A stretch of DNA of 64,000 nucleotides from an uncultured Rhizobium sp. (GCA_964655235.1 CAZZLX010000001.1:1842-65841); one strand, 5' to 3'; numbered from the stretch's first letter, positions 29,323 through 55,378 are shown. Notes: generated by a model not told the origin, from the sequence alone. Numbers and translations: made by a program.

Positions 29323-30807
29323 TCAAAGCAGTGCCTCGAGCTCCATGAGGCCCCGCTCGCCAAGGATGATGTCCGAATACTGAAGCGCATACGGCGATAC
29401 GGCCCGTCCCGTCACTCGCCGGTACTGTGCGCCGTTCATCGCCGCGATGACTGAAAAGAAACTGCGGTGCGATCCTTCTGCATCGATTTCGACCACCCGG
29501 GCACCCGGTGAGACGAAGGCGAGGTTGGCAAGTGCCGCCCCGTGCACGGAAACGATCAGCTCGGCCGCCGCAAACAGAGCCGCCTGACGAGTCACCGGCA
29601 TGCCTTCCGTGGTCACGACCGCGACGCCGCGACGCCGCAGGACGTCGACGACCTCCCGCTCGTCATGCAGAAGCCGGTGCTTCGCCTCGCGGCGTGAAAC
29701 GTAGATCCGCTTCGGCGCGTCAGGTGCCGTCCCGTCGGACAGGAACTGCTTTCTCAGCCAGACCAGCGCGGCCGGATGTACGAGGCTCGATTTCGTCAGT
29801 AGCGAGGGAACGGTCAGGTCGTCCACTTCGATCCGATCATCGGGAACGAGCTTCAGCAGCCGGTCTTCCCCGAGGCGAAGATGGCGCAGGCTGTCGATCT
29901 GGAACGGCGCGAGATCGGCGTTCACGATCAATGGGCGGTCGACCTCCGGGTCGAAGAGCGCCAAGCGTGGCAGATGGTCGATGATCCAGTGGTAGTAGTT
30001 CCGCGCCCCGCCGAGCAGCGCCGCCCGTGCGACGCGGCGCGCCTTACCCTTGCGCACGAGCGCATAACGGGGACCGATCACGGCGATGGAGCGAACCAGT
30101 TGCAGAGGATCGGCCGGATCGGGCACCTGCCCGTCGATGAGGATCTGGGTCGGTGTCGGCATGACCATGAAGTCGCCGGTGACGACGGCGTGCTTCATGG
30201 AAAGGAAGTAGGGAGAGATCGACAGTTCGCCGTCGTCGAGGATCAGCCGCGCCGGCTCGATCCGGCATGCGACGGTGGGCGGCCGAGCCAGTTCCCGTAT
30301 TTCGAACGCCGTGGACCTGCCACTGATCGTTTCGGCGCGTTGAGCCGCGACCAGCGCTCTGCCGGCGAATGCAAGAGCAAGGAGGCCGGCCGACATCCGC
30401 ATCCAGGCCGCGGCTTCGGCCGGTTCCAGCGCGATACCGCGGCGAAGGGCCTTTTCGGCGCCGCCGGCACGCTCGAGCGTGAACCAATGTTCGGCGACGT
30501 CGGGTTCGATCGAGGCCGCCCGGCTGATGAACCGGCCCGCCTGCTCTTGGTCGGGAAGCGCCAGATCGCGCCAGGTCTTGGCGCGACCGGGCACGAGAGC
30601 CAGCGCCTGTCGCAACCATCGGCAAGCAAGGCCGCGGTGGTTGCGCTGATATGCGATCAGACCGAGAAGGTCGTAGAGACCGTCGTGGGAAGGGTTTTCA
30701 CTCAGGAGGCGGAGATAGATATGCTCCGCCTGGCCGAGACGCCCGGATCGATGGAACTCCGCTGCCTCGGCGAGGGATCGGTTGAACCCTCGCTCTTCCG
30801 ACGGCAC
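29323..30807 (-). CDS. TPR-repeat protein with C-terminal GT61/DUF563-like glycosyltransferase domain
   Basis: 494 aa. N-terminal TPRs (GRLGQAEHIYLRLLSENPSHDGLYDLLGLIAYQ). The C-terminus has GGARNYYHWIIDHLPRL and ...VSVHGAALANLAF, typical of the DUF563/GT61 (EOGT-related) family. Confidence 0.7.
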   Translation of the reverse strand: MPSEERGFNRSLAEAAEFHRSGRLGQAEHIYLRLLSENPSHDGLYDLLGLIAYQRNHRGLACRWLRQALALVPGRAKTWRDLALPDQEQAGRFISRAASIEPDVAEHWFTLERAGGAEKALRRGIALEPAEAAAWMRMSAGLLALAFAGRALVAAQRAETISGRSTAFEIRELARPPTVACRIEPARLILDDGELSISPYFLSMKHAVVTGDFMVMPTPTQILIDGQVPDPADPLQLVRSIAVIGPRYALVRKGKARRVARAALLGGARNYYHWIIDHLPRLALFDPEVDRPLIVNADLAPFQIDSLRHLRLGEDRLLKLVPDDRIEVDDLTVPSLLTKSSLVHPAALVWLRKQFLSDGTAPDAPKRIYVSRREAKHRLLHDEREVVDVLRRRGVAVVTTEGMPVTRQAALFAAAELIVSVHGAALANLAFVSPGARVVEIDAEGSHRSFFSVIAAMNGAQYRRVTGRAVSPYALQYSDIILGERGLMELEALL

Positions 30808-31232: not shown

Positions 31233-33182
31233 TTGGGGGCTATGGCAATGACCATGCCCGAAACTGAATCGGTGGCAGCCTCCTCCGTCCGCATGTCCGA
31301 GGATGCGAGCGCTCGCCCGATCGGGAGTGAAACAGCCGATCGTCTGGCGAGGGAACCGGCGGACGCCGAATTGCACGTGGCGTTGGCCCAGGACGCGCTG
31401 CGGGAGGGCCGGCGCGATCTTGCGGGGACCCGTATCCGGCGCGCGCTCGCGATCGTTCCGGTCGCCGCCCCGCTTCACGCAAATCTCGCCATCCTCAGCG
31501 ACGGTCCCCGCGCGCGCCGCGCGATCAGGCGTGCCCTCGCCCTCGCGCCGGACGTCTTCCCGTTCCACGCGAACCTTTCCGCGATGCCCGCCTTCTCCGC
31601 CGGGCAACGTGTTCGTCACGGATGGCGAGCTATGGCACTGCAGGCTGGCGACCCCGGAGCCATCCTCAATCTCGCGCTTGCACTGGGCGAGGCCAACCGC
31701 GCCAACGAAGCGGCGGCCTTACTGGCGCCGGCCGTGCGTGCAACCCCCCTCTCCGTCGACCTTCACTTCACCCTTGGAGGGGTTCTCGCTGATCTCGGCG
31801 AGACCGGCGGAGCCTGGCATCAGCTCCGCTGCGCTGCCGCGCTGGCGCCGGCAGACGCGGGCGTGTGGTTGCGCATGGCCAGGATCGCCTCGTCAGCGGC
31901 CGCCCCTCTGGCAGCAAGCGACATCGTCTCGCGCGCAACGAGCATCGACCCTCGAACGCCTGCCGCCTGGAGCGCGCGCCTGATGGTATCGCTCTACGAT
32001 CATCGGACGACTCCGCTGCAGGAGCGCGGCTACGCGCGTTCGCGCCGCCAGGCCGAGCAACGACCGATCCGCCGCCGGCCGAGGCCTTCTCATTGCGCAG
32101 ACAGGATCCGCCTCGCCTATGTTTCGGCCGATTTCTGGAAGCATCCTGTCGCCTACAATATCGCGCCCGCGATCGAGGCTCACGACCGGCGGAGATTCCA
32201 GATCACGTGCTATGCCGACATGGGTCGGCGTGACGACATGACCGATCGCCTCGCGCGCTCCGCTGATCGCTGGGTGGATATCACCGGCCACGACGACGAG
32301 ACGCTCGCCCATCGGATCCGTGCGGACGGGATCGACGTGCTGGTCGTCCTCGCGGGCAATACCGCCCGTAACCGCCTCGGCATCGCCTCCCTCCGTCCGG
32401 CCCCGGTACAGCTTTCCATGCTCGACGTCGCGAGCAGCGGGTCGCCCGAGATCGATGGGATCGTCGTCGATCCGATGCTGTGCCCGCCCTCGGACCAGGC
32501 AGCCCTCGCCGAGCGGCCTCTCAACGTTTCGTGCCTCTTCTGCTTCACAAAGCCGGAGGGCCTGCTCCCGACCATGCGACGCGCGGAGGGCGACGGCATC
32601 GTGTTCGGATCGTTCAGCAACCCGGCCAAGATCGGGCCTGCCACGGTCGCTCTCTGGGCACCGCTGCTGCACGACCTTCCGGGTGCTCGGCTGCTCTTGA
32701 AGTACAAGAATCTTTACGATGATCGCAGCGTGCAGGCGCGTATCCGCGGAGAGTTCGCCGCGCACGGCGTGGACACGGCGGCGCTCGACTTCTCGACGCG
32801 GGTCGACAGCCGTGAGACACACCTCGACGCTTACCGCGACATCGACATCGCGCTCGATCCGATCCCCTTCAATGGCTGCACCACGACGTTCGAGGCTCTC
32901 TGGATGGGCGTTCCCGTCTTGAGCAGGACAGCCGGGCGCATGATGGGGCGGATGGGAGCGTCGATACTTTCCGCTGCTGGTCTGCCTGATCTGGTTTTCG
33001 AGGACGACACCGCCTTTCACGAGAAGGGGCGCGTCCTAGCCATCGCGGGCGAGCGGCGACGCCAGCTCCGGCAAGAGCTACGACCGAAACTGCTCGCGTC
33101 CCGCCTCACGGATGGACGCCCACTTGCCCGCGAGCTCGAGGCCGTCTTCGAGGAAGCGCACCGCGCCTTCGCCCAGGCATGA
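31233..33182 (+). CDS. TPR-repeat protein with C-terminal GT41-like domain
   Basis: 649 aa. Motifs: IRLAYVSADFWKHPV, IVFGSFSNPAKIGP, IDIALDPIPFNGCTTTFEALWMGVPVLSRTAGRMMGRMGASIL. The start may be a downstream in-frame ATG. Confidence 0.85.
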   Translation: MGAMAMTMPETESVAASSVRMSEDASARPIGSETADRLAREPADAELHVALAQDALREGRRDLAGTRIRRALAIVPVAAPLHANLAILSDGPRARRAIRRALALAPDVFPFHANLSAMPAFSAGQRVRHGWRAMALQAGDPGAILNLALALGEANRANEAAALLAPAVRATPLSVDLHFTLGGVLADLGETGGAWHQLRCAAALAPADAGVWLRMARIASSAAAPLAASDIVSRATSIDPRTPAAWSARLMVSLYDHRTTPLQERGYARSRRQAEQRPIRRRPRPSHCADRIRLAYVSADFWKHPVAYNIAPAIEAHDRRRFQITCYADMGRRDDMTDRLARSADRWVDITGHDDETLAHRIRADGIDVLVVLAGNTARNRLGIASLRPAPVQLSMLDVASSGSPEIDGIVVDPMLCPPSDQAALAERPLNVSCLFCFTKPEGLLPTMRRAEGDGIVFGSFSNPAKIGPATVALWAPLLHDLPGARLLLKYKNLYDDRSVQARIRGEFAAHGVDTAALDFSTRVDSRETHLDAYRDIDIALDPIPFNGCTTTFEALWMGVPVLSRTAGRMMGRMGASILSAAGLPDLVFEDDTAFHEKGRVLAIAGERRRQLRQELRPKLLASRLTDGRPLARELEAVFEEAHRAFAQA

Positions 33183-34948
33183 CGACTTCCGGCACGAAAC
33201 TCCGACAGGCACTCGCTTCTTCGCCGAGCGACGCCTCGGCGTGGCACGAACTCGGCGCGGCTTTCATTCGCGCTTCGAATGCAGTGATGGCCGTGACCGC
33301 GTTCTCGCGCCAAGCGATCCTCGCCCCGATGGACGCGATCGCGCGCGTCAATGTCGCGAACGCCTTGAAGCGCCTGTCGCGCGACGACGAGGCAGCGCGA
33401 TGGCTGCGACGTGCGCAGGCATTGGCCGGCTCCGTCGCTCCCGCGAGCGAAAGCTTGGCCAACACCGCCTGGAGACGCGGTCAGACACAGGAGGCGCGGA
33501 CGCGCTATGGGCGCGCCTTGACGACGAGCCCGTCGGATTGGCGCTCGCGGCTGGGGGCCTGCGTCGCCGAATTGCCGGTCCTCTATGAAACCGAAGCGGA
33601 GATCGAGAGCGCGCGGCGCGCCTATTCGAATGCTCTTGGCCGGCTCGAGGCATGGTCCGAGGTCGCCGAGACCGAGGAACTCGCGCGATTTGCCGACGCC
33701 GTCGGATCGGTCCAGCCATTCTTCCTCGCCTACCAGGCCCGCGACGACCGCGAGCTCCAGGCGCGCTATGGGCGGCTGTTGTGCCGGGCCTTGGCGGCGC
33801 GTCATCCGGACCTGGCCCGCGCGCCGGCGAGACGCGAAAGAAGCGACAAGGAGCGCCTGCGTATCGGCTTGGTGTCCGGATACTTCAGGCGCCACTCGGT
33901 ATGGAAGATGGCCTTGGCAGGCTGGGTAGAGGCGCTCGACCGGTCCCGCTTCGAAGTCTTCGGCTACCACACGAGCGCAATCGCCGACGACGTGACGGCA
34001 CGGGCCGCCGCACGCCTCGACCGGTTCCTCGCCGGACCGCTCGATCGCAAGGTGCTGGCGCAACGCATCCGGGACGACCGCCTCGACTTTCTCTTCTATC
34101 CCGAGATCGGCATGGATCCGATCGCCGCCTGGCTCGCGGCACTCAAGCTGGCGCCCGTGCAGGCGATGTCCTGGGGTCACCCGACCACGTCGGGATATCC
34201 GACGATGGACCTCTTCTTCTCGAGCGACCTTATGGAGCCAGCGGACGGCGCCACGCGCTACGTCGAGCAGCTCGTGCGGCTTCCCGGTCTCGGATGTCTC
34301 TACACGCCGAGCCCGGTTTCGCCGGCTCCCATCTCGCGGCAGGACGCCGGTATCGGCACCGATGACGTCGTCTACCTCTGCGCCCAGTCTCTTTATAAGT
34401 ATCTGCCCCAGGATGACGAACTCCTGGCTCGCATTGCCGACGCCGTACCGCGTAGCCGGTTCGTCTTCTTCTCCGGCCCGATGCCGACAGTCACCCGGAC
34501 CTTCGTCAATCGCCTGTCCCGGCGTTTCGCCGCCGTGGGCCACGACCCAGGCTCTCGCATCCTCATGCTGCCGACCCTGACCGAGGAGGGCTTCCTCGGC
34601 GTCGCCAGACATGCCGACGTGCTCCTGGATTCGATCGGCTGGTCGGGCTTCAACTCGACGATCGAGGTGATCGGACACGGCGTGCCCGTCGTCACGCTGC
34701 CGGGCGACAGCATGCGAAGCCGACACACCTCCGCGACACTGACGAAGATGGGCCTGGACGACATGGTCGCATCAACCCGCGACGACTACGTCCGGCGAGC
34801 GGTCCGCCTCGGGCTCGACGAATCCCTTCGTCGGACCGACGGAAGCCGGATCGCGCGCACGCTCGACCGGTTGTTCGGTGATGCGGCTCCCATACGGGCG
34901 GTGGAAGCAGCGGTCCTCGCAGCCTGCGCGGCGGAGCTCCGGCGATGA
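33179..34948 (+). CDS. TPR-repeat protein with C-terminal GT41-like domain (divergent subfamily)
   Basis: ATGA overlap with the upstream gene. Motifs: LRIGLVSGYFRRHSV, APVQAMSWGHPTTSGYPTMDLFFSSDLMEP, ADVLLDSIGWSGFNSTIEVIGHGVPVVTLPGDSMRSRHTSATL. Confidence 0.82.
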   Translation: MTTSGTKLRQALASSPSDASAWHELGAAFIRASNAVMAVTAFSRQAILAPMDAIARVNVANALKRLSRDDEAARWLRRAQALAGSVAPASESLANTAWRRGQTQEARTRYGRALTTSPSDWRSRLGACVAELPVLYETEAEIESARRAYSNALGRLEAWSEVAETEELARFADAVGSVQPFFLAYQARDDRELQARYGRLLCRALAARHPDLARAPARRERSDKERLRIGLVSGYFRRHSVWKMALAGWVEALDRSRFEVFGYHTSAIADDVTARAAARLDRFLAGPLDRKVLAQRIRDDRLDFLFYPEIGMDPIAAWLAALKLAPVQAMSWGHPTTSGYPTMDLFFSSDLMEPADGATRYVEQLVRLPGLGCLYTPSPVSPAPISRQDAGIGTDDVVYLCAQSLYKYLPQDDELLARIADAVPRSRFVFFSGPMPTVTRTFVNRLSRRFAAVGHDPGSRILMLPTLTEEGFLGVARHADVLLDSIGWSGFNSTIEVIGHGVPVVTLPGDSMRSRHTSATLTKMGLDDMVASTRDDYVRRAVRLGLDESLRRTDGSRIARTLDRLFGDAAPIRAVEAAVLAACAAELRR

Positions 34949-36696
34949 CGCCCGCACTTCACGCGATGAAGGCGCTCATCGATGCCGGGCTGGATCATCA
35001 TCGACACGGCCGCGCATCCGAGGCGGCCGAACTGTATCGGCAGGCGATCGCGGCGGGAGCCGGTGCGCCGGCGCGAGATCTTCTCGGCGTCGTGCTCACC
35101 GAGCAGGCTCGAGCGGCGGAAGCGGAGGTAGAGTTTCGCCGGGCCCTGATCCACGAGCCTTCGCTCGCCAGCGCCCATGGTCACCGCGGCAACGCCCTCG
35201 CCGCACGAGGTCGCTGGCCGGAGAGCGTCGGCAGCTACCGTCGTGCCCTCTCGATCAGCGGTCCCGACCCCCTCTGGCTGCGCAATCTCGGCGGCGCGCT
35301 GATGAAAGCGGGCGATGTCGTCGGCGCTTTTGCCGTCTTTGCGGCCGCGAATGCCCGACGGCCCGGCGAGAGCGCGACGCTGAACGACCTCGGTCGTGCC
35401 TCCGTCGAACTCGGCCGCATCGACATGGCCGGATGTTTCTTTCGTCAGGCGGTTGCATCGGATCCCAGTCATCCCGAAGCGGCCCTCAACCTGGCGCTAG
35501 CCGAGCTCAGTCGTGGTGATGGCGCGGCGACGCGCTGCCACGCGCTGAGAGCAGGAGCCTTGTCGACGGCCTCGCCGGACGTCATCAACGCCTTGGGAGC
35601 CGCCGATCTCGCCGAGGACCGTCCCGATGCCGCCGTGTCCCGGCTCCGCGAAGCCGTGAGGCGACGACCGGACTTCGCTGAAGCGCACTACAACCTCGGA
35701 CTTGCCGACTTCGACCGCCTCCGGCTCTCCGAGGCCAAGGTCCATCTCCGGCGCGCGCTCGACCTGAAGCCAAGCTATGCCGAGGCCCGATGGAACCTCG
35801 CGCTTGCACAGCTGCTCGAGGGAAACTTCGCCGACGGCTGGCGCGGCTACGAAGCGCGCTGGCGCATGCGTCGGTTTCCCACGCGGCCTCGCAATTGGCC
35901 GGTTCCCGAATGGGCGGGCGAGGATCTGGCTGGCCGGCGAATCCTTCTTCATGCGGAGCAGGGTCTTGGCGACACGCTGCAGTTCATCCGGTACGCGCCC
36001 CTGGTGGCCGCGCGCGGCGGGCGCGTAATCCTCGAGTGCCAACGGCCGCTTCGTCGCCTCCTGGCCCTCATGCCGTCGATCGAGGAGGTCTGCGTACAGG
36101 GCGATGCCCTGCCTGCATTCGACCGGCACGCGCCGCTGATGTCGTTGCCGCGCATCTTTCAGACAACTCTCGCGACAATTCCACAGGACGTGCCCTATCT
36201 GCCGACAAGCAAACCGGCATTCCATCGCCCGAAACATCCCGTCATCGGAGTCGTGTGGGGCGGAAGCGCGCTACATCCGCGCGACCGGGCCCGCTCCATC
36301 TCGCCCGAAACGGCCCGAGCCCTGGTGCGCCGGCTGATGGAAGCCGGCATCGGCGAGGTCGTCAGTCTCCAGTTCGGGCCGCGGGCCGCCGAGCTAGACG
36401 ACCTTATTACCTGTCCTGTCGGCAATAAGGACTTTCTGGATACCGCACGAGTCCTAGAGGACATCTCAGTCGTCGTCGGCGTGGATACTTCGGCACTTCA
36501 CCTGGCCGGCGGCCTCGGGCGCCCGGGTCTCGTCCTTCTCAACCATATTCCGGACTTCCGGTGGCTTCTCGGACGCCTGGACTCTCCCTGGTATCCTACC
36601 CATCGGCTGCTCCGGCAACCGAGTCCCGGGGATTGGGCGTCTGTTCTCGAGGCCGTTCCCGCCATAACTGCGGAAATCCTGGAGTCACGCACCTGA
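34945..36696 (+). CDS. TPR-repeat protein with C-terminal GT9-like domain
   Basis: ATGA overlap. Motifs: ILLHAEQGLGDTLQFIRYAPL, VIGVVWGGSALHPRDRARS, VVGVDTSALHLAGGLGRPGLVLL, SPWYPTHRLLRQ. Confidence 0.85.
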   Translation: MTPALHAMKALIDAGLDHHRHGRASEAAELYRQAIAAGAGAPARDLLGVVLTEQARAAEAEVEFRRALIHEPSLASAHGHRGNALAARGRWPESVGSYRRALSISGPDPLWLRNLGGALMKAGDVVGAFAVFAAANARRPGESATLNDLGRASVELGRIDMAGCFFRQAVASDPSHPEAALNLALAELSRGDGAATRCHALRAGALSTASPDVINALGAADLAEDRPDAAVSRLREAVRRRPDFAEAHYNLGLADFDRLRLSEAKVHLRRALDLKPSYAEARWNLALAQLLEGNFADGWRGYEARWRMRRFPTRPRNWPVPEWAGEDLAGRRILLHAEQGLGDTLQFIRYAPLVAARGGRVILECQRPLRRLLALMPSIEEVCVQGDALPAFDRHAPLMSLPRIFQTTLATIPQDVPYLPTSKPAFHRPKHPVIGVVWGGSALHPRDRARSISPETARALVRRLMEAGIGEVVSLQFGPRAAELDDLITCPVGNKDFLDTARVLEDISVVVGVDTSALHLAGGLGRPGLVLLNHIPDFRWLLGRLDSPWYPTHRLLRQPSPGDWASVLEAVPAITAEILESRT

Positions 36697-37028
36697 AACT
36701 GCCTGTTGCCAGCGGCACACACCCCTTCTGATTTTTCACGATGTCGACGAAAACAACGGCCGCCCTGTCCTTCCAGAGTGAAAGATTACCCCGACAATAC
36801 TTTCTCTTGCCGAAACAAGACAATTAACCGGCCTTGTTCGCAGTACACACGTCTCCCCGTCGCAACCAATGAGATTCTGGCGCGACTAAACGGGAAATGG
36901 GGGCAAAGGACGCGGGAAATGCGACCGGCATGCCCATCGTCCGAAGTTATTCCTTATAGCCGTTCCGGACCCGTCGGAGACGATGCCCGCCCCCCTGCTA
37001 AACCCGCGAAAATGCTGGTCCCGCCCCG

Positions 37029-37058
37029 TTGACAACGGCCAAAAGCCAGCCGTATAAA
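37029..37058 (+). promoter_or_regulatory. Near-consensus sigma70-type promoter (TTGACA-N18-TATAAA) for the Thr/Ser-rich secreted protein gene
   Basis: TTGACA at 37029-34, an 18-nt spacer, TATAAA at 37053-58. It closes a 420-bp comparatively AT-rich intergenic region. GGAG lies 11 nt before the ATG at 37123. Confidence 0.55.
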
Positions 37059-37122
37059 CCGTGAGCCGCGGGCCTTGGACCCGAAAACGGCATGTCGTCA
37101 ACGTAACTGGAGCTGGAAAAAA

Positions 37123-38484
37123 ATGTTTGAGACTCAGAGCTCTCGCAAGAGGCTGCTGCTGGCGACGACGGGTCTGGGAACCGTCATGACGACCATGTCG
37201 TTCCTGGGTGTCATGTCGCCTGCTTCCGCGTCGTCGCTCGTTGTGAGCGCTGCGAACACCTTCGCTCGTCAGCTGACTTCGACCGGCAACGCGACCCTGA
37301 GTGGCACCACCATTCAGCTAATCACCACGGCCGCGACGCTCACGACCGGTAACTTCATCACCTTCGGTCTGCCTTCGGGCATGACCTTCGCCGCCAACCC
37401 GACCGTCGGGTTCTCGGCTGGTGTCAACCTGGCGCTGACCCTCTCGACGGGCGGCTCGGGTGCTGCCTCGGCCGTCTACCAGGTGACCACCGCGAGCTCC
37501 GGTTCGACCGCGGTCTCGCTGACGGGCATCCAGGTCTCGGGCCTGCAGACCTACGTCTCGACGAACTCGACGGCGAACACCTTCAACATCTCTGCCACCC
37601 TGACTGCTGATACCGCCACTCAGCAGGGCAGCGCGGCTTCGACCATCGTCGCCAACATCACGGACGCGGCCTCCGCGACCCAGGCTGCTGGTGCGGCTCA
37701 GACCATCGACGTCTCGTCGGGCGGCAACCGCTTCATCTCGGGTACGGGCACGGCTCTGTTCGCCCCGCTCGGCACGGTCGCCTTCGCCAACGCCGCTATC
37801 GCCCCGAACGACGTCAGCGGCGGCAGCGCCGTCTCGATGAGCGCTCAGGGTGGTGCGATCACCGTCAGCGGCTCGCTGACCGGTATCTCGACCGTCTACG
37901 CGATCGCCACTGCTGTTGCCACGACCTGCGCCACCGCGGCTCCGTCGGGTGCGTTCACCGCGACCCCCGGCTCGACCTCGGCGACGCTCACCGGGCTCAG
38001 CGTGTCGACGTTCCAGGTCTGCGCGATCGCCAACGGCTCGAGCGTGCTGAGCAACGGCTCGATCACTGTTCGCGGCGTCGTCACGACCAGCAACAACGGC
38101 ACGATCACCGGCACGACGACCTCCAACGCCGTCGGTTACAGCGGCACGGTGCGCACGTCGAACTACTTCGTCGGTGTCACGGGCGGCTACAGCTCGTTCG
38201 CCTACGCGGTGAACGGCGGCACCTCGGCGTCGACCGCCCTGGTCAGCGTCCGCCGCTCGGACGGCGCGACCGCGGTCGGCTCGCTCAGCAGCCTCGCTGC
38301 TGGCGCCTCGGCTCTGTTCGGCGCGTCGGACATCAACACCGCGGTCGGCAGCACCTTCCTGGGTGATGCGTCGTCCCGCGCTCAGGTCACCTTCCTGTTC
38401 GGTTCGAGCAGCGTGAAGCTGACCGGCCTGCTGCTGAACCCGGCGGGCGTTGTCACCAACATGGGCGCGGTCTTCAGCGACTAA
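37123..38484 (+). CDS. Secreted Thr/Ser/Ala/Gly-rich repetitive protein (candidate surface/S-layer-like glycoprotein)
   Basis: Start at MFETQSSRKR (ATG 37123). The ORF-track start at 37075 is a 5' extension. Sec signal peptide with an AxA site (…MSPASA|SS). The mature protein is ~45% Thr+Ser+Ala+Gly, with few charged residues and no Cys pair. Seven N-x-S/T sequons and many S/T clusters. Strong promoter and terminator. Confidence 0.8.
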   Translation: MFETQSSRKRLLLATTGLGTVMTTMSFLGVMSPASASSLVVSAANTFARQLTSTGNATLSGTTIQLITTAATLTTGNFITFGLPSGMTFAANPTVGFSAGVNLALTLSTGGSGAASAVYQVTTASSGSTAVSLTGIQVSGLQTYVSTNSTANTFNISATLTADTATQQGSAASTIVANITDAASATQAAGAAQTIDVSSGGNRFISGTGTALFAPLGTVAFANAAIAPNDVSGGSAVSMSAQGGAITVSGSLTGISTVYAIATAVATTCATAAPSGAFTATPGSTSATLTGLSVSTFQVCAIANGSSVLSNGSITVRGVVTTSNNGTITGTTTSNAVGYSGTVRTSNYFVGVTGGYSSFAYAVNGGTSASTALVSVRRSDGATAVGSLSSLAAGASALFGASDINTAVGSTFLGDASSRAQVTFLFGSSSVKLTGLLLNPAGVVTNMGAVFSD

Positions 38485-38508
38485 GCCACAAGAACTACGC
38501 TTCAACTC

Positions 38509-38538
38509 AAAGGGCCCCGAAAGGGGCCCTTTTCTTTT
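38509..38538 (+). terminator. Rho-independent terminator
   Basis: Stem GGGCCCC (38512-38518), loop GAAA, perfect complement GGGGCCC (38523-38529), then T-tract TTTTCTTTT (38530-38538). Confidence 0.85.
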
Positions 38539-38617
38539 GCAGCTCGACGGTCGGAGGTACGCTTCCGTCCGGACTCGCTTCAGGACCTCCGCCATCGATC
38601 CCGACGTTGCACGAGCC

Positions 38618-39994
38618 GTGGAGCTGGATGTCGCCGGCCGGCGCACCGAGGCGACGGCCCTGGCGCGCGCTGTCCTGCAGCGCACGCCCTCCTCGGTCGA
38701 GGCGCGGTGCGTGCTGGCGACGATCGCCCTTCGTGATGGGTCTGCTTCCACCGCCGGAGCCCTGCTACGGCAGGCCTGCGTGCTCGAGCCCAGCTATCCT
38801 CAGGTTCACTACTACCTCGCCCTGTGGCGTCCGGATCGTGGCGACATCCCGGGCATGGAGTCGTCCCTTGCCCGGGCCCGCCAACTGCTCGGCACGGGAT
38901 CCAGAATGGCGACGAGTCTCGAGGCCTTCGCCGGCGCGTGGAGATGGCTCTCCGACCGCAGGGTCCCGTCTATGCCCCTGCGGTCAACTTCCCGTTCATC
39001 CGAGCCCGGAAGCACGCGCTGGCTGTTCGTCTGGCGCGATCTGGAGGAGTTCCTTGACCACTTCGACCAGGCACAGGTCGGAGGTCGGAGCACGTTCCGC
39101 CTGCCCAAGCGGGACCAGGGACCATCCTCGGACCCATCGGAGCAGCTGCTACGCTATTGCAAGGACGTCGATCCGGAGATCGTGGTCTTCCTGCCGGGAA
39201 CGGCCCAGCATCGAAATCCGACGCTCGGCGTCTTTCGGCAGCTGCGTGCCCAAGGGATCCCGACCGTCCTGTTCGTCGCCGATCTACGAAAGGCGCTTTG
39301 GCAAGGAGTCGCAAATCGCGTTGCCGATGCCTTCGACCTCGTGCTGCCGATCGACGGCTGCAGTCTCGAGAGCCTGCCCTCGCTCCGTCACCTGGGCCGA
39401 CGCTTCTTTCGCGGCTGGTCGCCGATATCCCCAGGAAACGTTCCGCCTTTCGCCACCCGGCGGTCTTGCGTGAACCTTGTAGGCAGCCTGTGGGGCGAGC
39501 GCGTTCACGGCGTCCAGGCGCTGAGAAATGCCGGGATCGAGGTGATCACCCGTCCGTCCGCGATCGAGGCGCATCGGGATCCGAATTTGCCGGCCCACAA
39601 GACTCTTTCGACGGCGACCTATCTAGACTCGCTCAGGCAGGCTCAGCTGACGGTCAACTACAGCGCCTGCAGCACGGGAGACGGGCACCAGCTCAAAGGC
39701 CGGGTCCTGGAAGCGGCGGCGTGCGGCTCGATGCTTCTCGAGTCGGCCAACGACGTCACCTGCGACTTCTTCGAAGAGGGACGCGAATACGTCTCTTTCG
39801 ACGGAGCGGCCGATCTCGTCGAGAAGGTCCGGTATTTTCTCGCTCATCCCGAACGCGCCGCGGAAATCGCCGCGAACGCGACATCGCGGTTCCTCAGGGA
39901 CTACACCGCAACGACGTTCTGGACTCGCGTCCTCGCCGCCGCTCGCGAGAACAATGCCTCGATCGAGTCCGCTAGGCGACGTCTCCACCCCTGA
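38618..39994 (+). CDS. TPR-repeat protein with C-terminal CgeB-like (GT1-type) glycosyltransferase domain
   Basis: GTG at 38618 (VELDVAGRR...) is preferred. The ORF-track start at 38450 runs through the terminator. The C-terminus GRVLEAAACGSMLLESANDVTCDFFEEGREYVSFDGAADLVEKVRYFLAHPERAAEIAANATSRF matches the CgeB/Glyco_trans_1_2 C-terminal pattern. Confidence 0.7.
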   Translation: MELDVAGRRTEATALARAVLQRTPSSVEARCVLATIALRDGSASTAGALLRQACVLEPSYPQVHYYLALWRPDRGDIPGMESSLARARQLLGTGSRMATSLEAFAGAWRWLSDRRVPSMPLRSTSRSSEPGSTRWLFVWRDLEEFLDHFDQAQVGGRSTFRLPKRDQGPSSDPSEQLLRYCKDVDPEIVVFLPGTAQHRNPTLGVFRQLRAQGIPTVLFVADLRKALWQGVANRVADAFDLVLPIDGCSLESLPSLRHLGRRFFRGWSPISPGNVPPFATRRSCVNLVGSLWGERVHGVQALRNAGIEVITRPSAIEAHRDPNLPAHKTLSTATYLDSLRQAQLTVNYSACSTGDGHQLKGRVLEAAACGSMLLESANDVTCDFFEEGREYVSFDGAADLVEKVRYFLAHPERAAEIAANATSRFLRDYTATTFWTRVLAAARENNASIESARRRLHP

Positions 39995-42023
39995 CGCTCC
40001 GGAGTGCCTTGACGAGGTTGTGGGCGTAGAGATTTGCGTTGCAGAGGGGTGAGTTGATCACCTGGCTGCGGAGGTTGGCTCGGAGGGTTGCGAGTGCGGG
40101 GAGATCTCGCGCCAGCGCATCGGCCCTCTCGACGTAGCCCTGGTGGTCGGGCGCCACCAGATGATCGAGCCCCACCAGCGGCAGGAAGCCCGCTCCCATC
40201 CGCGCGATGAAGCGCTCGCCCGCCAGCGTCACCACCGGAACCCCCATCCACAGAGCCTGGAACGTCGCGTTGCACCCGACGAACGGAAACGGATCCAAGG
40301 CAATGTCGACCTGATGGTAGATCGACAGATGCGCCGTCCCCTCCGTCGAGCCGGCCTCGAACTCGATCCGGTCCCCGCTCACCCCAAACCCTGAGAACGA
40401 CGACCGGATATGGGCGCGAAGCGTCGGGTCTTCGTAGAAATGCAGATACTTGAGAAGAAGCCGAGATCCCGGAACGGCCCGCATCACTGATGCCCAGGTC
40501 GACAACGTCGAGGGCGACAGCTTCGCCGGGTTGTTGAAGCACCCGAACGTCACCCGGCCCGAGCTCAGAGCCGGAAGCGCCGATACCAGAGGCTCCTCCG
40601 GCGGGCGGCGGAACACGTACCAGCACGGCAGCCGCAACAGCCTCTCGCTGAACTTCTCCTCCGTCCCCAATGGCGTCGTCGCCTCGTCGCCTACCCAGTA
40701 GTCCATCTCCGCCAGACCCGTCGTCGTCAAATCGAACAGAGACGCCTGGACCGGCGCCGCCCTCGACGCAAACACACGAAGACGACCACCAGCCGTGTGA
40801 CCCGCAACCGATACCAGAACGTCGATCCCGTCCTCGCGAACCGCAGAAACAACCTCCTCGTCGCTCAGATCCGCAATCACACGCCACCCATCCGCCAGAG
40901 ACGCAAATCGAGCACTCATCTCGTCCGGACGAGCGACATTCGCATACAGAAAAACCTCGACACCCCCCCGATCCATCCCCTCAACAATCGAAAGCAACGT
41001 CTCCCCTACCGCATGCCGGCGGAGATCGGCCGAGACAATGCCCAGCCGCAGCTGCCGTCCATCAGGCAAGTCCGGCCGCCTCGGCATCGGCAATCGGAGG
41101 GCCTGATCGTGACGACCGGCGACAGCCCTGAACAGCTCCTCGGCCGTGGTCGAGTCCCGGTACAGCAGCGACATCACGCGATTGCTGGCGAAAGCCGCAT
41201 TCGACGGCGCGAGCATGACAGCGCGACCACCCCACGCAGCGGCCTCATCCGGGAAAGCCAGCGTTGACGACGCCACGCCGAGGTTGCTCACGGCGTCCGC
41301 ATCGGTCGGCTCCAGCACGACGGCCCGCCGCAAAGCAGTCCGTGCGTCCCCGAGCCGTCCTGCACGATGGAAGGCGCGGCCAAGATTGTTCTGGAGGCCG
41401 GCGAGAACCGGATCGAGTTCCGCCGCCTTCTCGAGTGTGGCGATGCGGTCCCGGCCACGATCCGAAAGCTCGTATGCGTTCGCCAAATTGACCAGGATCC
41501 GCGCCGATCCGCGATCCATCTGCGACGCCCGGACCAGCGCAGCGATCGAGGCACTGATCGCCTTCTCGCCGAGGAGAAGGATTCCGAGGTTCGATTGCAC
41601 CGCGGCGCTTCCGGGCTCTAGGCAGGCATGCCTTTGCGCGAAGCGCAGAAGATCCCTGACCGAGAGCACGGTCCGGCACCGCCCGATCAGGTTGCCGTAG
41701 GCCGAGGCGAAAAGAGGATCGCAGGCGATGGCACGGCGATAGATCCCGACGGCCGAAGAAAGATCGGCCGGTGCGACAGCTTCGCCCATGTTGCCGTGAA
41801 ACAACGCAACGGCAGGATCGACCGCCAGCGCGATGCGCAGGAAGCGCAGAGCGAGGTCGCTTCGTCCGCGCTGAAGCTCCCCCACACCTCGAAAATGCCA
41901 TGCCCAGGAATGCAGGGGGATCTGTGCGAGGATCTGCTCGTAGAGTCCGAGGGCCTCCGGCACCCGACCGGCCTGATGAAGCTGAAGCGCGTTCTGGAAC
42001 TGGGCGGCAGGATCGTTCGGCAT
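39972..42023 (-). CDS. TPR-repeat protein with C-terminal GT41-like domain (paralog A; catalytic domain identical to paralog B)
   Basis: 683 aa. Motifs: LRLGIVSADLRRHAVGE, VTFGCFNNPAKLSP, VDIALDPFPFVGCNATFQALWMGVPVVTLAGERFIARMGAGFL. Residues ~338-674 are encoded by the 1012-bp repeat. Confidence 0.85.
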   Translation of the reverse strand: MPNDPAAQFQNALQLHQAGRVPEALGLYEQILAQIPLHSWAWHFRGVGELQRGRSDLALRFLRIALAVDPAVALFHGNMGEAVAPADLSSAVGIYRRAIACDPLFASAYGNLIGRCRTVLSVRDLLRFAQRHACLEPGSAAVQSNLGILLLGEKAISASIAALVRASQMDRGSARILVNLANAYELSDRGRDRIATLEKAAELDPVLAGLQNNLGRAFHRAGRLGDARTALRRAVVLEPTDADAVSNLGVASSTLAFPDEAAAWGGRAVMLAPSNAAFASNRVMSLLYRDSTTAEELFRAVAGRHDQALRLPMPRRPDLPDGRQLRLGIVSADLRRHAVGETLLSIVEGMDRGGVEVFLYANVARPDEMSARFASLADGWRVIADLSDEEVVSAVREDGIDVLVSVAGHTAGGRLRVFASRAAPVQASLFDLTTTGLAEMDYWVGDEATTPLGTEEKFSERLLRLPCWYVFRRPPEEPLVSALPALSSGRVTFGCFNNPAKLSPSTLSTWASVMRAVPGSRLLLKYLHFYEDPTLRAHIRSSFSGFGVSGDRIEFEAGSTEGTAHLSIYHQVDIALDPFPFVGCNATFQALWMGVPVVTLAGERFIARMGAGFLPLVGLDHLVAPDHQGYVERADALARDLPALATLRANLRSQVINSPLCNANLYAHNLVKALRSVRGGDVA
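40000..41011. repeat. Perfect 1012-bp direct repeat, copy 1 (copy 2 at 42074..43085; period 2074 bp)
   Basis: Six spot-checked stretches (about 340 bp in total, at 40001-40050, 40021-40080, 40081-40140, 40441-40500, 40861-40920 and 40921-41011) match the second copy base for base. The ORF-track translations from both copies are identical (40143..40394 = 42217..42468, 40450..40701 = 42524..42775). The boundaries were found by inspection: 39999 c vs 42073 a, and 41012 c vs 43086 g. Confidence 0.9.
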
Positions 42024-42027: not shown

Positions 42028-44097
42028 TCAGGCCCGAGCCGGCTGTCCAGGGTGTTCCTGCATCGCGACCCGACGGAGTGCCTTGACGAGGTTGTGGGCG
42101 TAGAGATTTGCGTTGCAGAGGGGTGAGTTGATCACCTGGCTGCGGAGGTTGGCTCGGAGGGTTGCGAGTGCGGGGAGATCTCGCGCCAGCGCATCGGCCC
42201 TCTCGACGTAGCCCTGGTGGTCGGGCGCCACCAGATGATCGAGCCCCACCAGCGGCAGGAAGCCCGCTCCCATCCGCGCGATGAAGCGCTCGCCCGCCAG
42301 CGTCACCACCGGAACCCCCATCCACAGAGCCTGGAACGTCGCGTTGCACCCGACGAACGGAAACGGATCCAAGGCAATGTCGACCTGATGGTAGATCGAC
42401 AGATGCGCCGTCCCCTCCGTCGAGCCGGCCTCGAACTCGATCCGGTCCCCGCTCACCCCAAACCCTGAGAACGACGACCGGATATGGGCGCGAAGCGTCG
42501 GGTCTTCGTAGAAATGCAGATACTTGAGAAGAAGCCGAGATCCCGGAACGGCCCGCATCACTGATGCCCAGGTCGACAACGTCGAGGGCGACAGCTTCGC
42601 CGGGTTGTTGAAGCACCCGAACGTCACCCGGCCCGAGCTCAGAGCCGGAAGCGCCGATACCAGAGGCTCCTCCGGCGGGCGGCGGAACACGTACCAGCAC
42701 GGCAGCCGCAACAGCCTCTCGCTGAACTTCTCCTCCGTCCCCAATGGCGTCGTCGCCTCGTCGCCTACCCAGTAGTCCATCTCCGCCAGACCCGTCGTCG
42801 TCAAATCGAACAGAGACGCCTGGACCGGCGCCGCCCTCGACGCAAACACACGAAGACGACCACCAGCCGTGTGACCCGCAACCGATACCAGAACGTCGAT
42901 CCCGTCCTCGCGAACCGCAGAAACAACCTCCTCGTCGCTCAGATCCGCAATCACACGCCACCCATCCGCCAGAGACGCAAATCGAGCACTCATCTCGTCC
43001 GGACGAGCGACATTCGCATACAGAAAAACCTCGACACCCCCCCGATCCATCCCCTCAACAATCGAAAGCAACGTCTCCCCTACCGGGTGGCTGCAGAGGT
43101 CCGCCGATACAAACCCAATTCTGAATTTCCCCCTGGATCCGTTCGCAAGCGTACGCGACGGAGCGGGCGCATTCCGGATCATGCTGCCACTCGATGTCGC
43201 ACGCATCAGCTCGGATGCGCTCGTCGAGTCCGCATAGAGTAGCGTCATCACGTAGTTGCCGCGAAAAGCCGCATTCGTCGGCGCGACCGCCAAGGCCCGC
43301 CGAACGAACGCTTTGGCGCCCTCCGCGTCGCCCAAGGCGAGAGCGATATTTCCCAGATTGTTGAGGGCTTCCGCCTCGTCGGAATGCAGCGCCAAGGCGC
43401 GCCTGAGAGAGCGCCGCCCTTCGCCGATGCGTCCCGCGCGCTGATAGGCGCGACCCAGATTGTTGTGACTGCTCGCCGCGTGCGGGCTGAGCCGAGCCGC
43501 CTTCTCGAGAACCACTGTCGCCCGATCGGCCTCGCCTCCGACCACCAGGGCGCGGCCGAGATTGGCGAGGATCTCGGCCGCATCCGGCGAGAGCGATACC
43601 CCCCGCATCAACGCCTTCTCCCCGTGAGGAAGGTCACCCCGATCGCAAAGCAGCAATCCGAGATTTGACTGGGCGGCCGGATTGTTAGGCTCGACGGCGA
43701 CGTGACGGCGCGAAAATCGGAGCAGCGTTCCGGCACTCTCGATCGCGCGGCATCGAGCGACCAGGTTCCCGTATGCCGACCCGAACATGACGTCGCAGCT
43801 GATCGCACGACGATAGAGGCGTGCCGCAGATCCAAGGTCCGCGCCCGCCAGGGCTTCGCCCAGGTTACCGTGGAACACCGCGACGGACGGGTCGATCGCA
43901 AGCGCAACGTGAAGGCACCGAAGCGCGTCGCTCGACCGCCCTCGCTGCAGCTCGATCAGGCCCAGATAGTGCCATGCCCAGGAATGGAGCGGGACGCCCG
44001 ACAGCACGTCGCGGTAGCGCCTCTCGGCCTCGTCAACCCGGCCGACCTGATGCAGACCTAGGCCTTCCTGGAATATCCCGTTCCAATCACCTGCCAT
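42028..44097 (-). CDS. TPR-repeat protein with C-terminal GT41-like domain (paralog B)
   Basis: 689 aa. The N-terminal TPR region is distinct. From ...VGETLLSIVEG onward it is identical to paralog A until the final ~10 residues. Confidence 0.85.
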   Translation of the reverse strand: MAGDWNGIFQEGLGLHQVGRVDEAERRYRDVLSGVPLHSWAWHYLGLIELQRGRSSDALRCLHVALAIDPSVAVFHGNLGEALAGADLGSAARLYRRAISCDVMFGSAYGNLVARCRAIESAGTLLRFSRRHVAVEPNNPAAQSNLGLLLCDRGDLPHGEKALMRGVSLSPDAAEILANLGRALVVGGEADRATVVLEKAARLSPHAASSHNNLGRAYQRAGRIGEGRRSLRRALALHSDEAEALNNLGNIALALGDAEGAKAFVRRALAVAPTNAAFRGNYVMTLLYADSTSASELMRATSSGSMIRNAPAPSRTLANGSRGKFRIGFVSADLCSHPVGETLLSIVEGMDRGGVEVFLYANVARPDEMSARFASLADGWRVIADLSDEEVVSAVREDGIDVLVSVAGHTAGGRLRVFASRAAPVQASLFDLTTTGLAEMDYWVGDEATTPLGTEEKFSERLLRLPCWYVFRRPPEEPLVSALPALSSGRVTFGCFNNPAKLSPSTLSTWASVMRAVPGSRLLLKYLHFYEDPTLRAHIRSSFSGFGVSGDRIEFEAGSTEGTAHLSIYHQVDIALDPFPFVGCNATFQALWMGVPVVTLAGERFIARMGAGFLPLVGLDHLVAPDHQGYVERADALARDLPALATLRANLRSQVINSPLCNANLYAHNLVKALRRVAMQEHPGQPARA
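42074..43085. repeat. Perfect 1012-bp direct repeat, copy 2
   Basis: See copy 1. Confidence 0.9.
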
Positions 44098-44967: not shown

Positions 44968-46596
44968 ATGAAGACGAAAAGGAACCGGGATCTGCAGCGG
45001 GCGCGCAACGCGCCCGTTGCCGGCAATCTTTTTGCCGAGGCCAGCCGCGCGTACACCGCTGGCGATCTCGACGCCGCCGAGCGTCACGCGAGCCAGCTCC
45101 TACGCGCCCAGCCAAGAAATGCCGATGCACTCAATCTCATCGGCGTCATCGCCGCCGCCCGAAGCGACATGCCTCGCGCGGCGAAATTTCTCGGCCAGGC
45201 GGCCGAGCTCATGCCTCGATCCGCCTCGATCCGAGGCAATCTCGCCCTCGCGCTGAAGATGCTCGGCCGCTGGCATGACGCGATCGCGCAGGCACGCGAG
45301 GGAGTCCGGCTCGAGCCCGGCAACTCGATCATCTGGAACACGCTTTGCGCCGCGCAATACGAGGTCGGGGACCATGCCGGCGCCTTGGTCAGCGGCCGCA
45401 CGGCGATCGCCCTAGGCCCGACCATGGCCGAGGCCTGGAACAACTTCGGTAACGTTCTCGTCGAGTTCGGCCACGCGCGGACGGAAAGCGCCTTTCGCAT
45501 GGCCCTCGCGCTCAATCCCTTCCTGGTTCAGGCATGGTCGGGGCTCGGCAGCGCCGCGCTCAGGCAGAAGCGCCACGAAGCGGCTCAAGCGGCCTTCGAG
45601 CGAGCCCTCACCATCCGCTGGCCCAGCCGATGGTGGCCTGGAAATCGCCCGGCCTCCGTCCTCCCGCCGCCGCAGAGTCTCACCAACACCGTCAAGCTGC
45701 GCCACGACATCGAGCAGTTCGAAGCAGGCCGCCGGTCGGGGATCTATGGAGCGGAGTTCGATCCGATCATTTCGGCCTATCGCCGTGCACTCGATCGATT
45801 TGTCGGGCGATATGGCGCGTCGGCGAATGGCGCCCTTCATCCCGAGGACGTCGCTGCCATCGGCGATGTCTACGGACGCATCGTCAACTGGACCCCTCCG
45901 GCCAAGATCGCCGGTGGAGCCGTGGCGGCCGATTGGGATCGCGCTGACGTCGCACGACGCTACGCGGTGCCCCCCGGTATCTGCTGGGTCGACGGCTTCC
46001 TGACGGCGGAGGCCCTCTCCTCTCTCCGCAAGTTCTGCCTCGACTCGACCATCTGGAACGACATCAGTCACAATTACCAGGCGGCGCCGGTCGCTCGCGG
46101 ATATCTCGGGGCCTACGCCGCCGACGGCTTCTTCGCCCCGCTGCTCTTCCAGATCGCCGAGGAGCTGGCCGCGGCGCTTCCCGGGATCTTCGGTGGACAC
46201 CCTCTTCGCCAGATCTGGGCGTACAAGTACGAGAAGAAGCTCGAGGGCATCGGAATCCATGGCGACGACGCCGCGGTCAACGTCAACTTCTGGATCACGC
46301 CGGACAGCGCCAACCTGGACCCGGACTCCGGTGGCCTGATCGTCTATCCGGTGGAGGCGCCGGCTGATTGGGACTTCGCCGCGATCAATACCGAGCCGGA
46401 GACGATGCATCGCTTCGTCGAGGCGGCCGGGGAGCCTCCGGTCAATGTTCCGTACCGGCAGAACCGCGCCGTCATCTTCAACTCCGACCTCTTCCATGCG
46501 ACGGCGCCTCTCCGATTCCGTCCTGGATACGAAAACCGCCGCATCAACGTGACGATGCTGTTCGGCCAGCGACAGCCACGATCACGTTCAGCATGA
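44968..46596 (+). CDS. TPR-repeat protein with C-terminal 2OG-Fe(II) oxygenase-like (cupin) domain; candidate protein hydroxylase
   Basis: 542 aa. N-terminal TPRs. The C-terminus has IGIHGDDAAVNVNFWITPD (HxD) and a distal VIFNSDLFHAT (His). The architecture resembles Asp/Asn beta-hydroxylase. Confidence 0.7.
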   Translation: MKTKRNRDLQRARNAPVAGNLFAEASRAYTAGDLDAAERHASQLLRAQPRNADALNLIGVIAAARSDMPRAAKFLGQAAELMPRSASIRGNLALALKMLGRWHDAIAQAREGVRLEPGNSIIWNTLCAAQYEVGDHAGALVSGRTAIALGPTMAEAWNNFGNVLVEFGHARTESAFRMALALNPFLVQAWSGLGSAALRQKRHEAAQAAFERALTIRWPSRWWPGNRPASVLPPPQSLTNTVKLRHDIEQFEAGRRSGIYGAEFDPIISAYRRALDRFVGRYGASANGALHPEDVAAIGDVYGRIVNWTPPAKIAGGAVAADWDRADVARRYAVPPGICWVDGFLTAEALSSLRKFCLDSTIWNDISHNYQAAPVARGYLGAYAADGFFAPLLFQIAEELAAALPGIFGGHPLRQIWAYKYEKKLEGIGIHGDDAAVNVNFWITPDSANLDPDSGGLIVYPVEAPADWDFAAINTEPETMHRFVEAAGEPPVNVPYRQNRAVIFNSDLFHATAPLRFRPGYENRRINVTMLFGQRQPRSRSA

Positions 46597-54559: not shown

Positions 54560-54609
54560 CGGCGGATCGCTTCCACCGCCGATACAGGACTGCTAAGTCT
54601 CAACCGTTC

Positions 54610-55374: not shown

Positions 55375-55378
55375 CGCC

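Follow-up and report, generated by a model that had tools for sequence, protein, structure and literature searches.

An arrangement in which a surface-layer (S-layer) protein has a type II secretion system (T2SS) dedicated to it is already known from Slr4, NpdA and the S-layer proteins of Aeromonas. For most Gram-negative lineages, the S-layer protein has yet to be identified. Slr4 of Pseudoalteromonas tunicata, a demonstrated S-layer protein and the most abundant protein in culture, bears a Sec signal and has a T2SS operon directly upstream of its gene (Ali et al. 2020, PMC7821379). In the case of NpdA (Paracidovorax, Delftia), the S-layer protein is a domain-less ‘hypothetical’ product with a Sec signal, encoded next to a 12-gene gsp cluster (PMC10765051), and VapA/AhsA of Aeromonas is reported to have a signal peptide, export by the dedicated T2SS-like Sps/Aps machinery and linked O-antigen genes of the lipopolysaccharide (PMC7821379, PMC4483657). 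In this study, we have analysed a 64,000-nucleotide stretch of DNA (the window) assigned to an uncultured Rhizobium sp. (GCA_964655235.1 CAZZLX010000001.1:1842-65841), in which positions 36697-38538 hold a 426-bp spacer, a single open reading frame (ORF; 37123-38484, + strand, 453 amino acids, with its ATG at 37123 and its stop codon at 38482-38484) and a terminator. We propose, with a probability of roughly 0.6, that this ORF encodes a major S-layer-type coat protein of an uncultured alphaproteobacterium, which would be modified by glycosyltransferases (GTs) and exported by the Sec pathway and a T2SS. What distinguishes the locus is that it is coupled, in a conserved manner, to a very large battery of cytoplasmic OGT/SPINDLY-like glycosyltransferases carrying tetratricopeptide repeats (TPR-GTs). 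We found no description of this coupling in the literature covered, nor did that literature yield a paper linking GT41 enzymes with S-layers, or one combining S-layer, T2SS and TPR-GT in such a manner.

Systems in which surface proteins are glycosylated before they leave the cytoplasm offer the second set of comparisons. The autotransporters of AIDA-I/AAH and TibA/TibC are O-heptosylated on Ser/Thr in the cytoplasm and then take a Sec-type route, and the serine-rich repeat proteins with GtfA/B are O-glycosylated on Ser/Thr in the cytoplasm before export by an accessory Sec system. By description, the present locus resembles AAH/TibC in the GT9-like (heptosyltransferase-like) gene found directly upstream of the ORF; it differs in resembling GT9 weakly (E 0.02-0.05) and in having a long TPR domain, and from the serine-rich repeat systems in having no accessory Sec system. 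The HMW1/HMW1C pair provides the topological precedent, since there a cytoplasmic GT41 enzyme is reported to modify a Sec-exported surface protein before its export (PMC2877744, PMC3012730), whereas the GT41 enzyme tested here is SPINDLY/OGT-like, the sequons are not enriched and export would proceed through a T2SS rather than by two-partner secretion. FlmG of Caulobacter and Brevundimonas is a TPR + GT-B enzyme that O-glycosylates flagellin with pseudaminic or legionaminic acid (PMC7591256; bioRxiv 2022.03.25.485807). The product of the gene at 38618-39994 in the window is like it in architecture, with an N-terminal TPR and a C-terminal GT-B domain, and nonulosonic-acid genes (NeuB, a cytidine monophosphate (CMP)-transferase, PseB-like) are likewise present in the island; the acceptor of FlmG is flagellin, which leaves the cell through the type III system of the flagellum, whereas the acceptor proposed here is a Sec/T2SS cargo.

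An Slr4-like protein and its probable exporter

The identity of the protein emerges from its family. A word-indexed search returned 22 relatives, all ‘hypothetical’, and an exhaustive profile search 179 cluster representatives, mostly full-length proteins of 440-490 residues with Sec signal peptides; across all the sources covered, ‘hypothetical’ is the only annotation that the family carries. An NCBIfam scan of ten diverse members gave no match, as did tblastn searches of the plasmid collection with the protein itself and with the family member P0095. The Slr4 sequence published by Ali et al. 2020 (PMC7821379) was used to collect its family, so that an alignment of 27 Slr4 proteins (A4) could be set against an 88-sequence alignment of the present family headed by our protein (A3). 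The two profiles matched in hhalign at 90.5% (E 1.4e-6) over 296 colinear columns, pairing residues 74-380 of the protein with residues 164-495 of Slr4. In addition, 7 of the 88 family members match the Slr4 family of Pfam, PF19526, for which P0099 scores 41.9 bits (cutoff 25), P0095 23.9 and P0026 20.2; the protein itself falls below that model, with no match at E<=0.1. A weak Slr4 match was also present among the precomputed Pfam annotations of one member. Comparisons with the single Slr4 sequence were weak (E 0.012 with A3 and 0.42 with the narrow close-family alignment A1). Because of the family-versus-family match and the intermediates that match PF19526, we regard the protein as belonging to a new, divergent alphaproteobacterial branch of the Slr4-like S-layer superfamily; that it is an S-layer-type T2SS cargo we hold with good confidence. 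NpdA (WP_011797163), of similar size and likewise in a T2SS context, was also considered as a homologue, but hhalign gave 0.08% and phmmer a best E of 0.69 against the family, and it was set aside.

The likeness to Slr4 extends to the Sec/SPI signal, the link to a gspE...gspD operon and the occurrence on single-gene contigs. Slr4 is longer and poorer in Ser and Thr (579 residues and 17-21% S+T, against 453 residues and 31%), and it belongs to marine Gammaproteobacteria rather than to an uncultured alphaproteobacterium. The Slr4 locus holds polysaccharide genes, a single TPR-only protein and no GT41 gene, whereas in the window TPR-GT genes lie between the T2SS and the gene. In P. tunicata D2, a 633-residue TPR protein follows the Slr4 gene (L036, 13037-14938, - strand), with sulfotransferases, a Wzx-type flippase and GT4/GT2 genes beyond it, and a tblastn search of this locus with the TPR-GT proteins of the window found no relative.

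The earlier note on this DNA had read a Sec signal peptide at the start of the protein, and this reading stands: the N-terminus runs from RKR through a hydrophobic stretch to A-S-A|S at residues 34-37, so that a 36-residue Sec/SPI-type peptide (37123-37230, + strand) with cleavage at ASA|S is predicted, and A36 is invariant in 88/88 aligned family members. The AlphaFold2 (AF2) model gives a low predicted local distance difference test score (pLDDT) to residues 1-31, with order and the first strand beginning at residue 37. Tat export was considered for this long signal peptide, with its S-R-K-R-L-L-L motif, and rejected, as no twin arginine is conserved and other clades have T-T-R-G-L-L or S-T-K-F-L-L. 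The mature protein (37231-38484, + strand, residues 37-453) has a predicted mass of ~39.95 kDa and a pI of 6.0. Few of its residues are charged and neither His nor Trp occurs; T+S+A+G amounts to 58.5% of the composition, where the earlier note had put it at ~45%.

Built from the 88 sequences, the AF2 model is all-β, with a pLDDT of 89.9 (an earlier model from 21 sequences reached 70), and divides the mature chain into three predicted β-sandwich domains. A pair of cysteines, Cys269 and Cys300, is present in 21/21 close-family sequences. Fold searches with the model returned generic Ig-like folds of surface proteins and, for the C-terminal domain (residues ~335-447; window ~38125-38463), a TM1070/ASRT-like fold, with no solved S-layer homologue among the matches. 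This predicted C-terminal domain is well conserved throughout the close family, and we infer that the protein forms a lattice and is anchored through it. The same TM1070/ASRT-like domain occurs in four tandem copies in the large proteins P0047, P0050, P0054 and P0058, which are likely extracellular and combine it with RCC1-repeat, subtilase or lamin-tail domains, and it is also borne by a fragment (L005) of a Chloroflexota metagenome-assembled genome (MAG); it may be a portable surface-binding module.

A complete T2SS operon occupies 10888-21051 (+ strand) of the window, with GspE, F, G, the minor pseudopilins, K, an L-like protein, M and the secretin GspD recognised by Pfam. All homologues examined on longer contigs outside the close clade (L007, L008, L023, L027, L030, L031, L033 and L034) adjoin a full T2SS operon, in several arrangements. 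At 33-37% protein identity (L007, L023, L027, L030), gspD follows the homologue, with the other operon genes further on; at 45-49% identity (L008, L010), a divergent gspE stands directly upstream; in L031/L032 and L034 the homologue comes after gspD. In L033 (JGI Ga0100045_101683, 1-13879), the homologue P0026 and two TPR-GT41 genes are embedded in the operon itself, in the order gspE-F-G-H-I-J-K, GT41, GT41, gspL, P0026, gspM, x, gspD. Identities to the T2SS of the window are 51-59% for GspD and 65% for GspE in L007, L008, L023, L027 and L030, and 36-45% in L031, L033 and L034. Because orthologous operons directly flank the homologues, the T2SS of the window is most likely the cognate dedicated exporter of the protein.

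Two further observations concern the export machinery. The N-terminus of GspD (18913-21051, + strand) ends in ...LIAGMVIGLAGC, which resembles a lipoprotein signal with its lipobox. HxcQ is the self-piloting liposecretin of the single-substrate Hxc T2SS, and by analogy this end suggests that GspD is a liposecretin of the same kind. At the left edge of the island, beside an aldo-keto reductase and the PseB-like gene, lies a SecB homologue (812-1267, - strand; PF02556, E 4.6e-28), which is compatible with glycosylation in the cytoplasm followed by Sec export. It may be nothing more than the housekeeping secB, or else an additional copy for an abundant Sec cargo.

Expression of the gene

Among the 36 window genes examined, codon bias is strongest in this one, with the lowest effective number of codons (Nc 29.9) and a third-position GC content (GC3) of 0.87. 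It is followed in this ranking by NeuB (31.0), the aminotransferase (32.0), the carbamoyltransferase (32.8), GspD (34.2) and GspE (35.9); the TPR-GT genes have Nc values of 39-48. In public collections, a family gene is the sole gene on dozens of 1.37-1.55-kb contigs, and Slr4 genes likewise turn up on single-gene contigs. One of the family contigs, L006, corresponds to window positions 37073-38506, beginning 15 nt past the -10 hexamer and ending 3 nt short of the terminator stem. From the shape of these contigs we infer that they are assembled, abundant monocistronic mRNA of metatranscriptomic origin. Taken with the promoter described below, the codon bias and the transcript-like contigs indirectly indicate that the gene is apparently very highly expressed, as the earlier note had supposed.

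That note had also named a strong promoter, which is present as a σ70-type element at 37029-37058 (+ strand), with TTGACA at 37029-37034, an 18-nt spacer and TATAAA at 37053-37058. The pattern TTGACA-N16-19-TATAA has this single match within the 64 kb and was found in 0/100 shuffles. The motif recurs ~70-100 nt 5′ of the gene in eight other loci (L001-L004, L013, L008-L010), among them a clade in which protein identity is just 45-49%. A generic promoter scan, which requires the -10 hexamer to end in T, did not call the site. In an alignment of the upstream spacer from five loci (A2), both hexamers are invariant and three further elements are conserved, the remaining spacer having diverged. One is a 22-nt box adjoining the -35 hexamer (36997-37018, + strand; GCTAAACCCGCGAAAATGCTGG), a candidate UP element or activator site. 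Another, further upstream, is a non-coding box at 36776-36800 (+ strand; GAGTGAAAGATTACCCCGACAATAC, also given as TTACCCCGACAAT), whose core TTACCCCGAC is invariant in the five loci between diverged flanks, and which is a candidate regulator site. The third comprises the final ~57 nt before the ATG, the probable 5′ untranslated region (5′UTR; 37066-37122, + strand, start site approximate), with a Shine-Dalgarno-like GGAG at 37109-37112.

Since the 5′ ends of the single-gene contigs lie 40-61 nt ahead of the ATG, the leader would span only these ~57 nt, and the ‘420-bp AT-rich leader’ of the earlier note holds in part: the 426-bp spacer is indeed lower in GC (52-62%, against 66.5% overall), but most of it is upstream region rather than leader. 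A structured, stabilising 5′UTR was ruled out, the leader folding worse than shuffled sequences (z +1.68). At the other end of the gene, the GC hairpin with T tract proved to be an intrinsic terminator (38509-38540, + strand), in which a stem-loop at 38509-38532, with a 10-bp stem (7 GC pairs) and a GAAA loop, precedes the T tract; the stem is kept in homologous contigs, and in L015 the loop has been swapped from GAAA to TTCG.

The glycosyltransferase island

The ORF is surrounded by TPR-GT genes, as the earlier note had said. A 17-gene set comprises ten GT41 genes, most of them with recognisable TPR repeats, three TPR + GT9-like genes, two TPR proteins, one TPR + PF13524 protein and one GT61 enzyme. 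None of the GT genes of the island encodes a signal peptide or a transmembrane segment. Such GT arrays are not described for NpdA, and we know of no cytoplasmic TPR-GT array in the case of Aeromonas VapA/AhsA.

Directly upstream of the gene lies the TPR + GT9-like gene (34945-36696, + strand), in which the TPR match is strong and the heptosyltransferase-like match weak (GT9 E 0.047, TIGR02193 E 0.019), and whose product is a candidate cytoplasmic protein glycosyltransferase. Every close locus has it in the same place, and in the 33-37% clade it occurs in duplicate upstream of the gene. It is preceded by two GT41 genes (31233-33182 and 33179-34948, + strand; PF13844, E 1e-35 and 4e-29) and by a GT61-domain glycosyltransferase with a TPR-like N-terminus (29323-30807, - strand; PF04577, E 1.7e-23), all syntenic in five loci. 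The block GT61 / GT41 / GT41 / TPR-GT9-like / target gene is thus found in five loci (69-91% identity), four of which continue with TPR-GT1_2 / GT41. Downstream, a TPR + Glyco_trans_1_2 gene of CgeB-like GT-B type (38618-39994, + strand; PF13524, E 1e-22, with TPR_14 and TPR_16; alternative start TTG at 38537) begins ~80 nt past the terminator, in agreement with the earlier note. Its product belongs to a narrow family of 13 homologues, all from the same clade and none named FlmG; it has no PDB match, and a literature search on the Pfam name of its GT domain found nothing. The homologue is retained downstream of the target gene in L002, L003, L004 and L013.

Further pairs of TPR-GT41 genes matching PF13844 lie at 39972-42023 and 42028-44097 (- strand), and between the T2SS operon and the target gene at 22187-24112 (+) and 24121-25881 (-); two more GT41 genes lie at 48147-49853 and 50767-52503 (- strand). 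Four proteins of ~500-540 residues that appeared to be TPR-only (26015-29319 and 44968-48152) form two pairs of paralogues. The first pair (26015-27610 and ~27610-29319) is 35-36% identical over ~440 residues to the TPR + GT9-like product of 34945-36696 and probably carries a GT-like C-terminal domain below the threshold of Pfam recognition; in the second (44968-46596 and 46656-48152) the C-terminal domain has no family match.

A sugar-donor block at 53291-61551 (+ strand) encodes a GT4-like protein, a CMP-sugar cytidylyltransferase, an RmlD-like reductase, a carbamoyltransferase, an aminotransferase, a second GT4-like protein and a NeuB-type nonulosonic acid synthase. The presence of the carbamoyltransferase among the nonulosonic-acid genes (54610-61551, + strand) suggests that the sugar is carbamoylated. 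A PseB-like dehydratase is encoded far to the left of the island, at 2625-3941. There is also a long ORF (6080-8161, + strand; up to 693 residues), with a GT41 gene on one side and a DUF5672 gene on the other, in which the sole recognisable element is an XRE-type helix-turn-helix at the extreme C-terminus (PF01381, E 1.6e-10); its product may be a regulator of the island.

The association with GT41 genes has been seen in three divergent clades, once within the T2SS operon itself (L033); in the 33-37% clade, three GT41 and two TPR-GT9-like genes lie upstream of the homologue and one more GT41 gene past the T2SS. Ser and Thr together make up 30-33% of the residues in members associated with GT41 genes; the figure for Slr4 proper is 17-21%, and the average 25.6%. 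On the 121-kb freshwater metagenome contig L008 (11492-21344), a B12-binding radical SAM gene comes after the homologue, and ~8 kb further there are genes for a glycosyltransferase of Maf type (Maf_flag10_N + MptE-like) and for a radical SAM/SPASM protein.

Possible glycosylation of the coat protein

The earlier note had proposed the protein as a target of the TPR-GTs. The conserved TPR-GT synteny supports this candidacy, which we place at about even odds as far as modification by the neighbouring enzymes is concerned, and the strong codon bias shared by the nonulosonic-acid genes was counted in its favour; the N-linked, HMW1C-type mechanism of the note is not retained, as discussed below. The glycosylation itself, its linkage and its order relative to export are plausible on the basis of the sequence analysis, and the whole might proceed as follows. 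The strong σ70 promoter and the intrinsic terminator would yield an abundant monocistronic mRNA of ~1.45 kb. The precursor, wholly or in part, would be O-glycosylated on Ser/Thr in the cytoplasm by the neighbouring soluble TPR-GTs, namely SPINDLY/OGT-like GT41s, GT9-like, GT61 and CgeB-like GT-B enzymes, with the TPR domains selecting the acceptor, and one enzyme possibly transferring the nonulosonic acid supplied by the NeuB/CMP-transferase block. The precursor would then cross the inner membrane through Sec and lose its 36-residue signal peptide at ASA|S; the three β-sandwich domains would fold in the periplasm, where the Cys269-Cys300 disulfide would form, and the T2SS encoded at 10.9-21 kb would push the folded protein out through the GspD secretin. 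Retention at the surface would most likely involve the C-terminal TM1070/ASRT-like domain. In its most specific form, in which an unfolded S-layer precursor is O-glycosylated by the full battery (ten SPINDLY/OGT-like GT41s together with the GT9-like, GT61 and FlmG-like enzymes), a modified nonulosonic acid being one of the donors, before Sec and T2SS export, this scenario is tentative, and we rate it somewhat short of an even chance.

The alternative that survives best, though we consider it unlikely, accepts the protein as an S-layer-type T2SS cargo and has the TPR-GTs act on other acceptors, for example on flagellins, on pilins or pseudopilins, on proteins of the cytoplasm or on a surface polysaccharide that anchors the layer. 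Some T2SS-bearing members that have no GT41 gene within 10 kb adjoin O-antigen or polysaccharide genes (rml, Wzm/Wzt, GT2, GT4). The S-layers of Aeromonas are reported to be anchored to an O-antigen encoded nearby (PMC4483657, PMC4413209), and glycosylation is not mentioned in the Slr4 paper (PMC7821379). The combination of cytoplasmic enzymes with a Sec-exported cargo also poses a topological hurdle. On the other hand, all characterised GT41 enzymes are, to our knowledge, protein O- or N-glycosyltransferases, none of them being a polysaccharide enzyme, and the TPR domains suggest protein acceptors. The placement of the genes argues for the coat protein as well: in L033 the GT41 genes sit between gspK and gspL, beside the homologue, and two further clades have the gene flanked by TPR-GT9-like and GT41 genes. 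No flagellin family was matched in the general Pfam scans of the window ORFs, and the S+T content is highest in the GT-associated members.

It is improbable, in our view, that the protein is instead a released or loosely bound T2SS exoprotein, a biofilm-matrix component or adhesin that builds no S-layer lattice. Dedicated T2SSs with one adjacent substrate that is not an S-layer protein are known, as in Hxc/LapA and T2SS-β/SslE. The family that the profile homology found here points to, however, is specifically one of S-layer proteins; a coat protein made in stoichiometric amounts fits the extreme codon bias, the contigs that look like transcripts and a composition resembling that of S-layer proteins; and the C-terminal domain, conserved and reused in tandem in likely extracellular proteins, fits surface binding.

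The linkage proposed by the earlier note, in which HMW1C-type GT41 enzymes N-glycosylate N-x-S/T sequons in the cytoplasm before Sec export, now appears very improbable. Its list of seven sequons was exact (N56, N148, N155, N178, N304, N311 and N325), but it does not amount to an enrichment, as 6.7±2.1 are expected from the composition (2000 shuffles). Two of the sites are well conserved, N304-G-S/T in 19/21 sequences and N148-S-T in 17/21, and the other five poorly; N304 belongs to a conserved C-A-I-A-N-G motif beside Cys300, so that structure can account for its being kept. As for the enzymes, the 39972-42023 product, the one of the ten GT41s in which catalytic residues were checked, matches end to end Arabidopsis SPINDLY (1e-77) and the OGT of T. 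terrenum (4e-75), as well as human OGT and XcOGT. Its matches to HMW1C-like enzymes and NGT structures are weak (~1e-5), some 70 orders of magnitude poorer, and the NCBIfam NGTferase model gave 2.7e-6 and 26 bits against a cutoff of 1000 bits. Since the tested GT41 resembles SPINDLY/OGT and not HMW1C, O-linkage to Ser/Thr appears likelier than N-linkage. In the alignment with SPINDLY (SPY; residues 162-839), the essential K665 is conserved together with N661, D491, H495 and H728, and the differences are S496 to A, Y744 to F and CNA in place of the T747-T749 motif, a pattern that suggests an active enzyme with a different donor. The least probable alternative is periplasmic transfer by an oligosaccharyltransferase of PglL/PglB type from a lipid-linked glycan built by the cytoplasmic GTs: this is the usual route of general O-glycosylation in Gram-negative bacteria and of many S-layer glycoproteins, and the window does hold GT4-like and nucleotide-sugar genes, but Pfam scans of its ORFs found no oligosaccharyltransferase, Wzx flippase or initiating phosphoglycosyltransferase, and the dominant TPR-GT41s are of a kind that acts directly on proteins.

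Several observations weigh against our proposal of a glycosylated S-layer-type cargo. Both the lattice and the glycosylation are proposals made from sequence analysis. The protein itself matched nothing in Pfam (E<=0.1), NCBIfam or the PDB sequences, and the narrow profile A1 did not match Slr4, so the homology depends on intermediate sequences. The T2SS of the window lies 16 kb upstream of the gene rather than adjacent to it, and the metatranscriptomic origin of the short contigs is read from their shape. With regard to glycosylation, no GT41 gene lies within 10 kb in the T2SS-bearing loci L008, L031 and L034, these and the Slr4 locus carrying Maf, rml, Wzm/Wzt or polysaccharide genes instead, and P0204 of L008 still has 32% S+T. 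The phosphate-binding motif GTTT of SPY reads GCNAT in the 39972-42023 product, bulky glycans added in the cytoplasm might fail to pass SecYEG, and seventeen GT genes seem excessive for one substrate.

All together, the link to Slr4 and to a cognate T2SS provides a probable coat protein and exporter for uncultured Alphaproteobacteria represented by MAGs and environmental metagenome contigs, and extends the reach of the Slr4 superfamily well past the marine Gammaproteobacteria. From a practical point of view, the compact promoter, 5′UTR and terminator could serve as an expression cassette in related bacteria. Bacterial GT41s of the OGT/SPINDLY-like kind are widespread, and their substrates are mostly unknown; the Ser/Thr-rich cargo described here is a candidate GT41 substrate, and this pairing of enzyme and substrate makes for a directly testable hypothesis. 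If it is true, the protein would be a clear physiological substrate for the bacterial homologues of OGT and SPY, and the locus would represent a new path of S-layer glycosylation, cytoplasmic and independent of an oligosaccharyltransferase, followed by Sec and T2SS export, in which the array of paralogous enzymes would give rise to a combinatorial and fast-evolving glycan coat.

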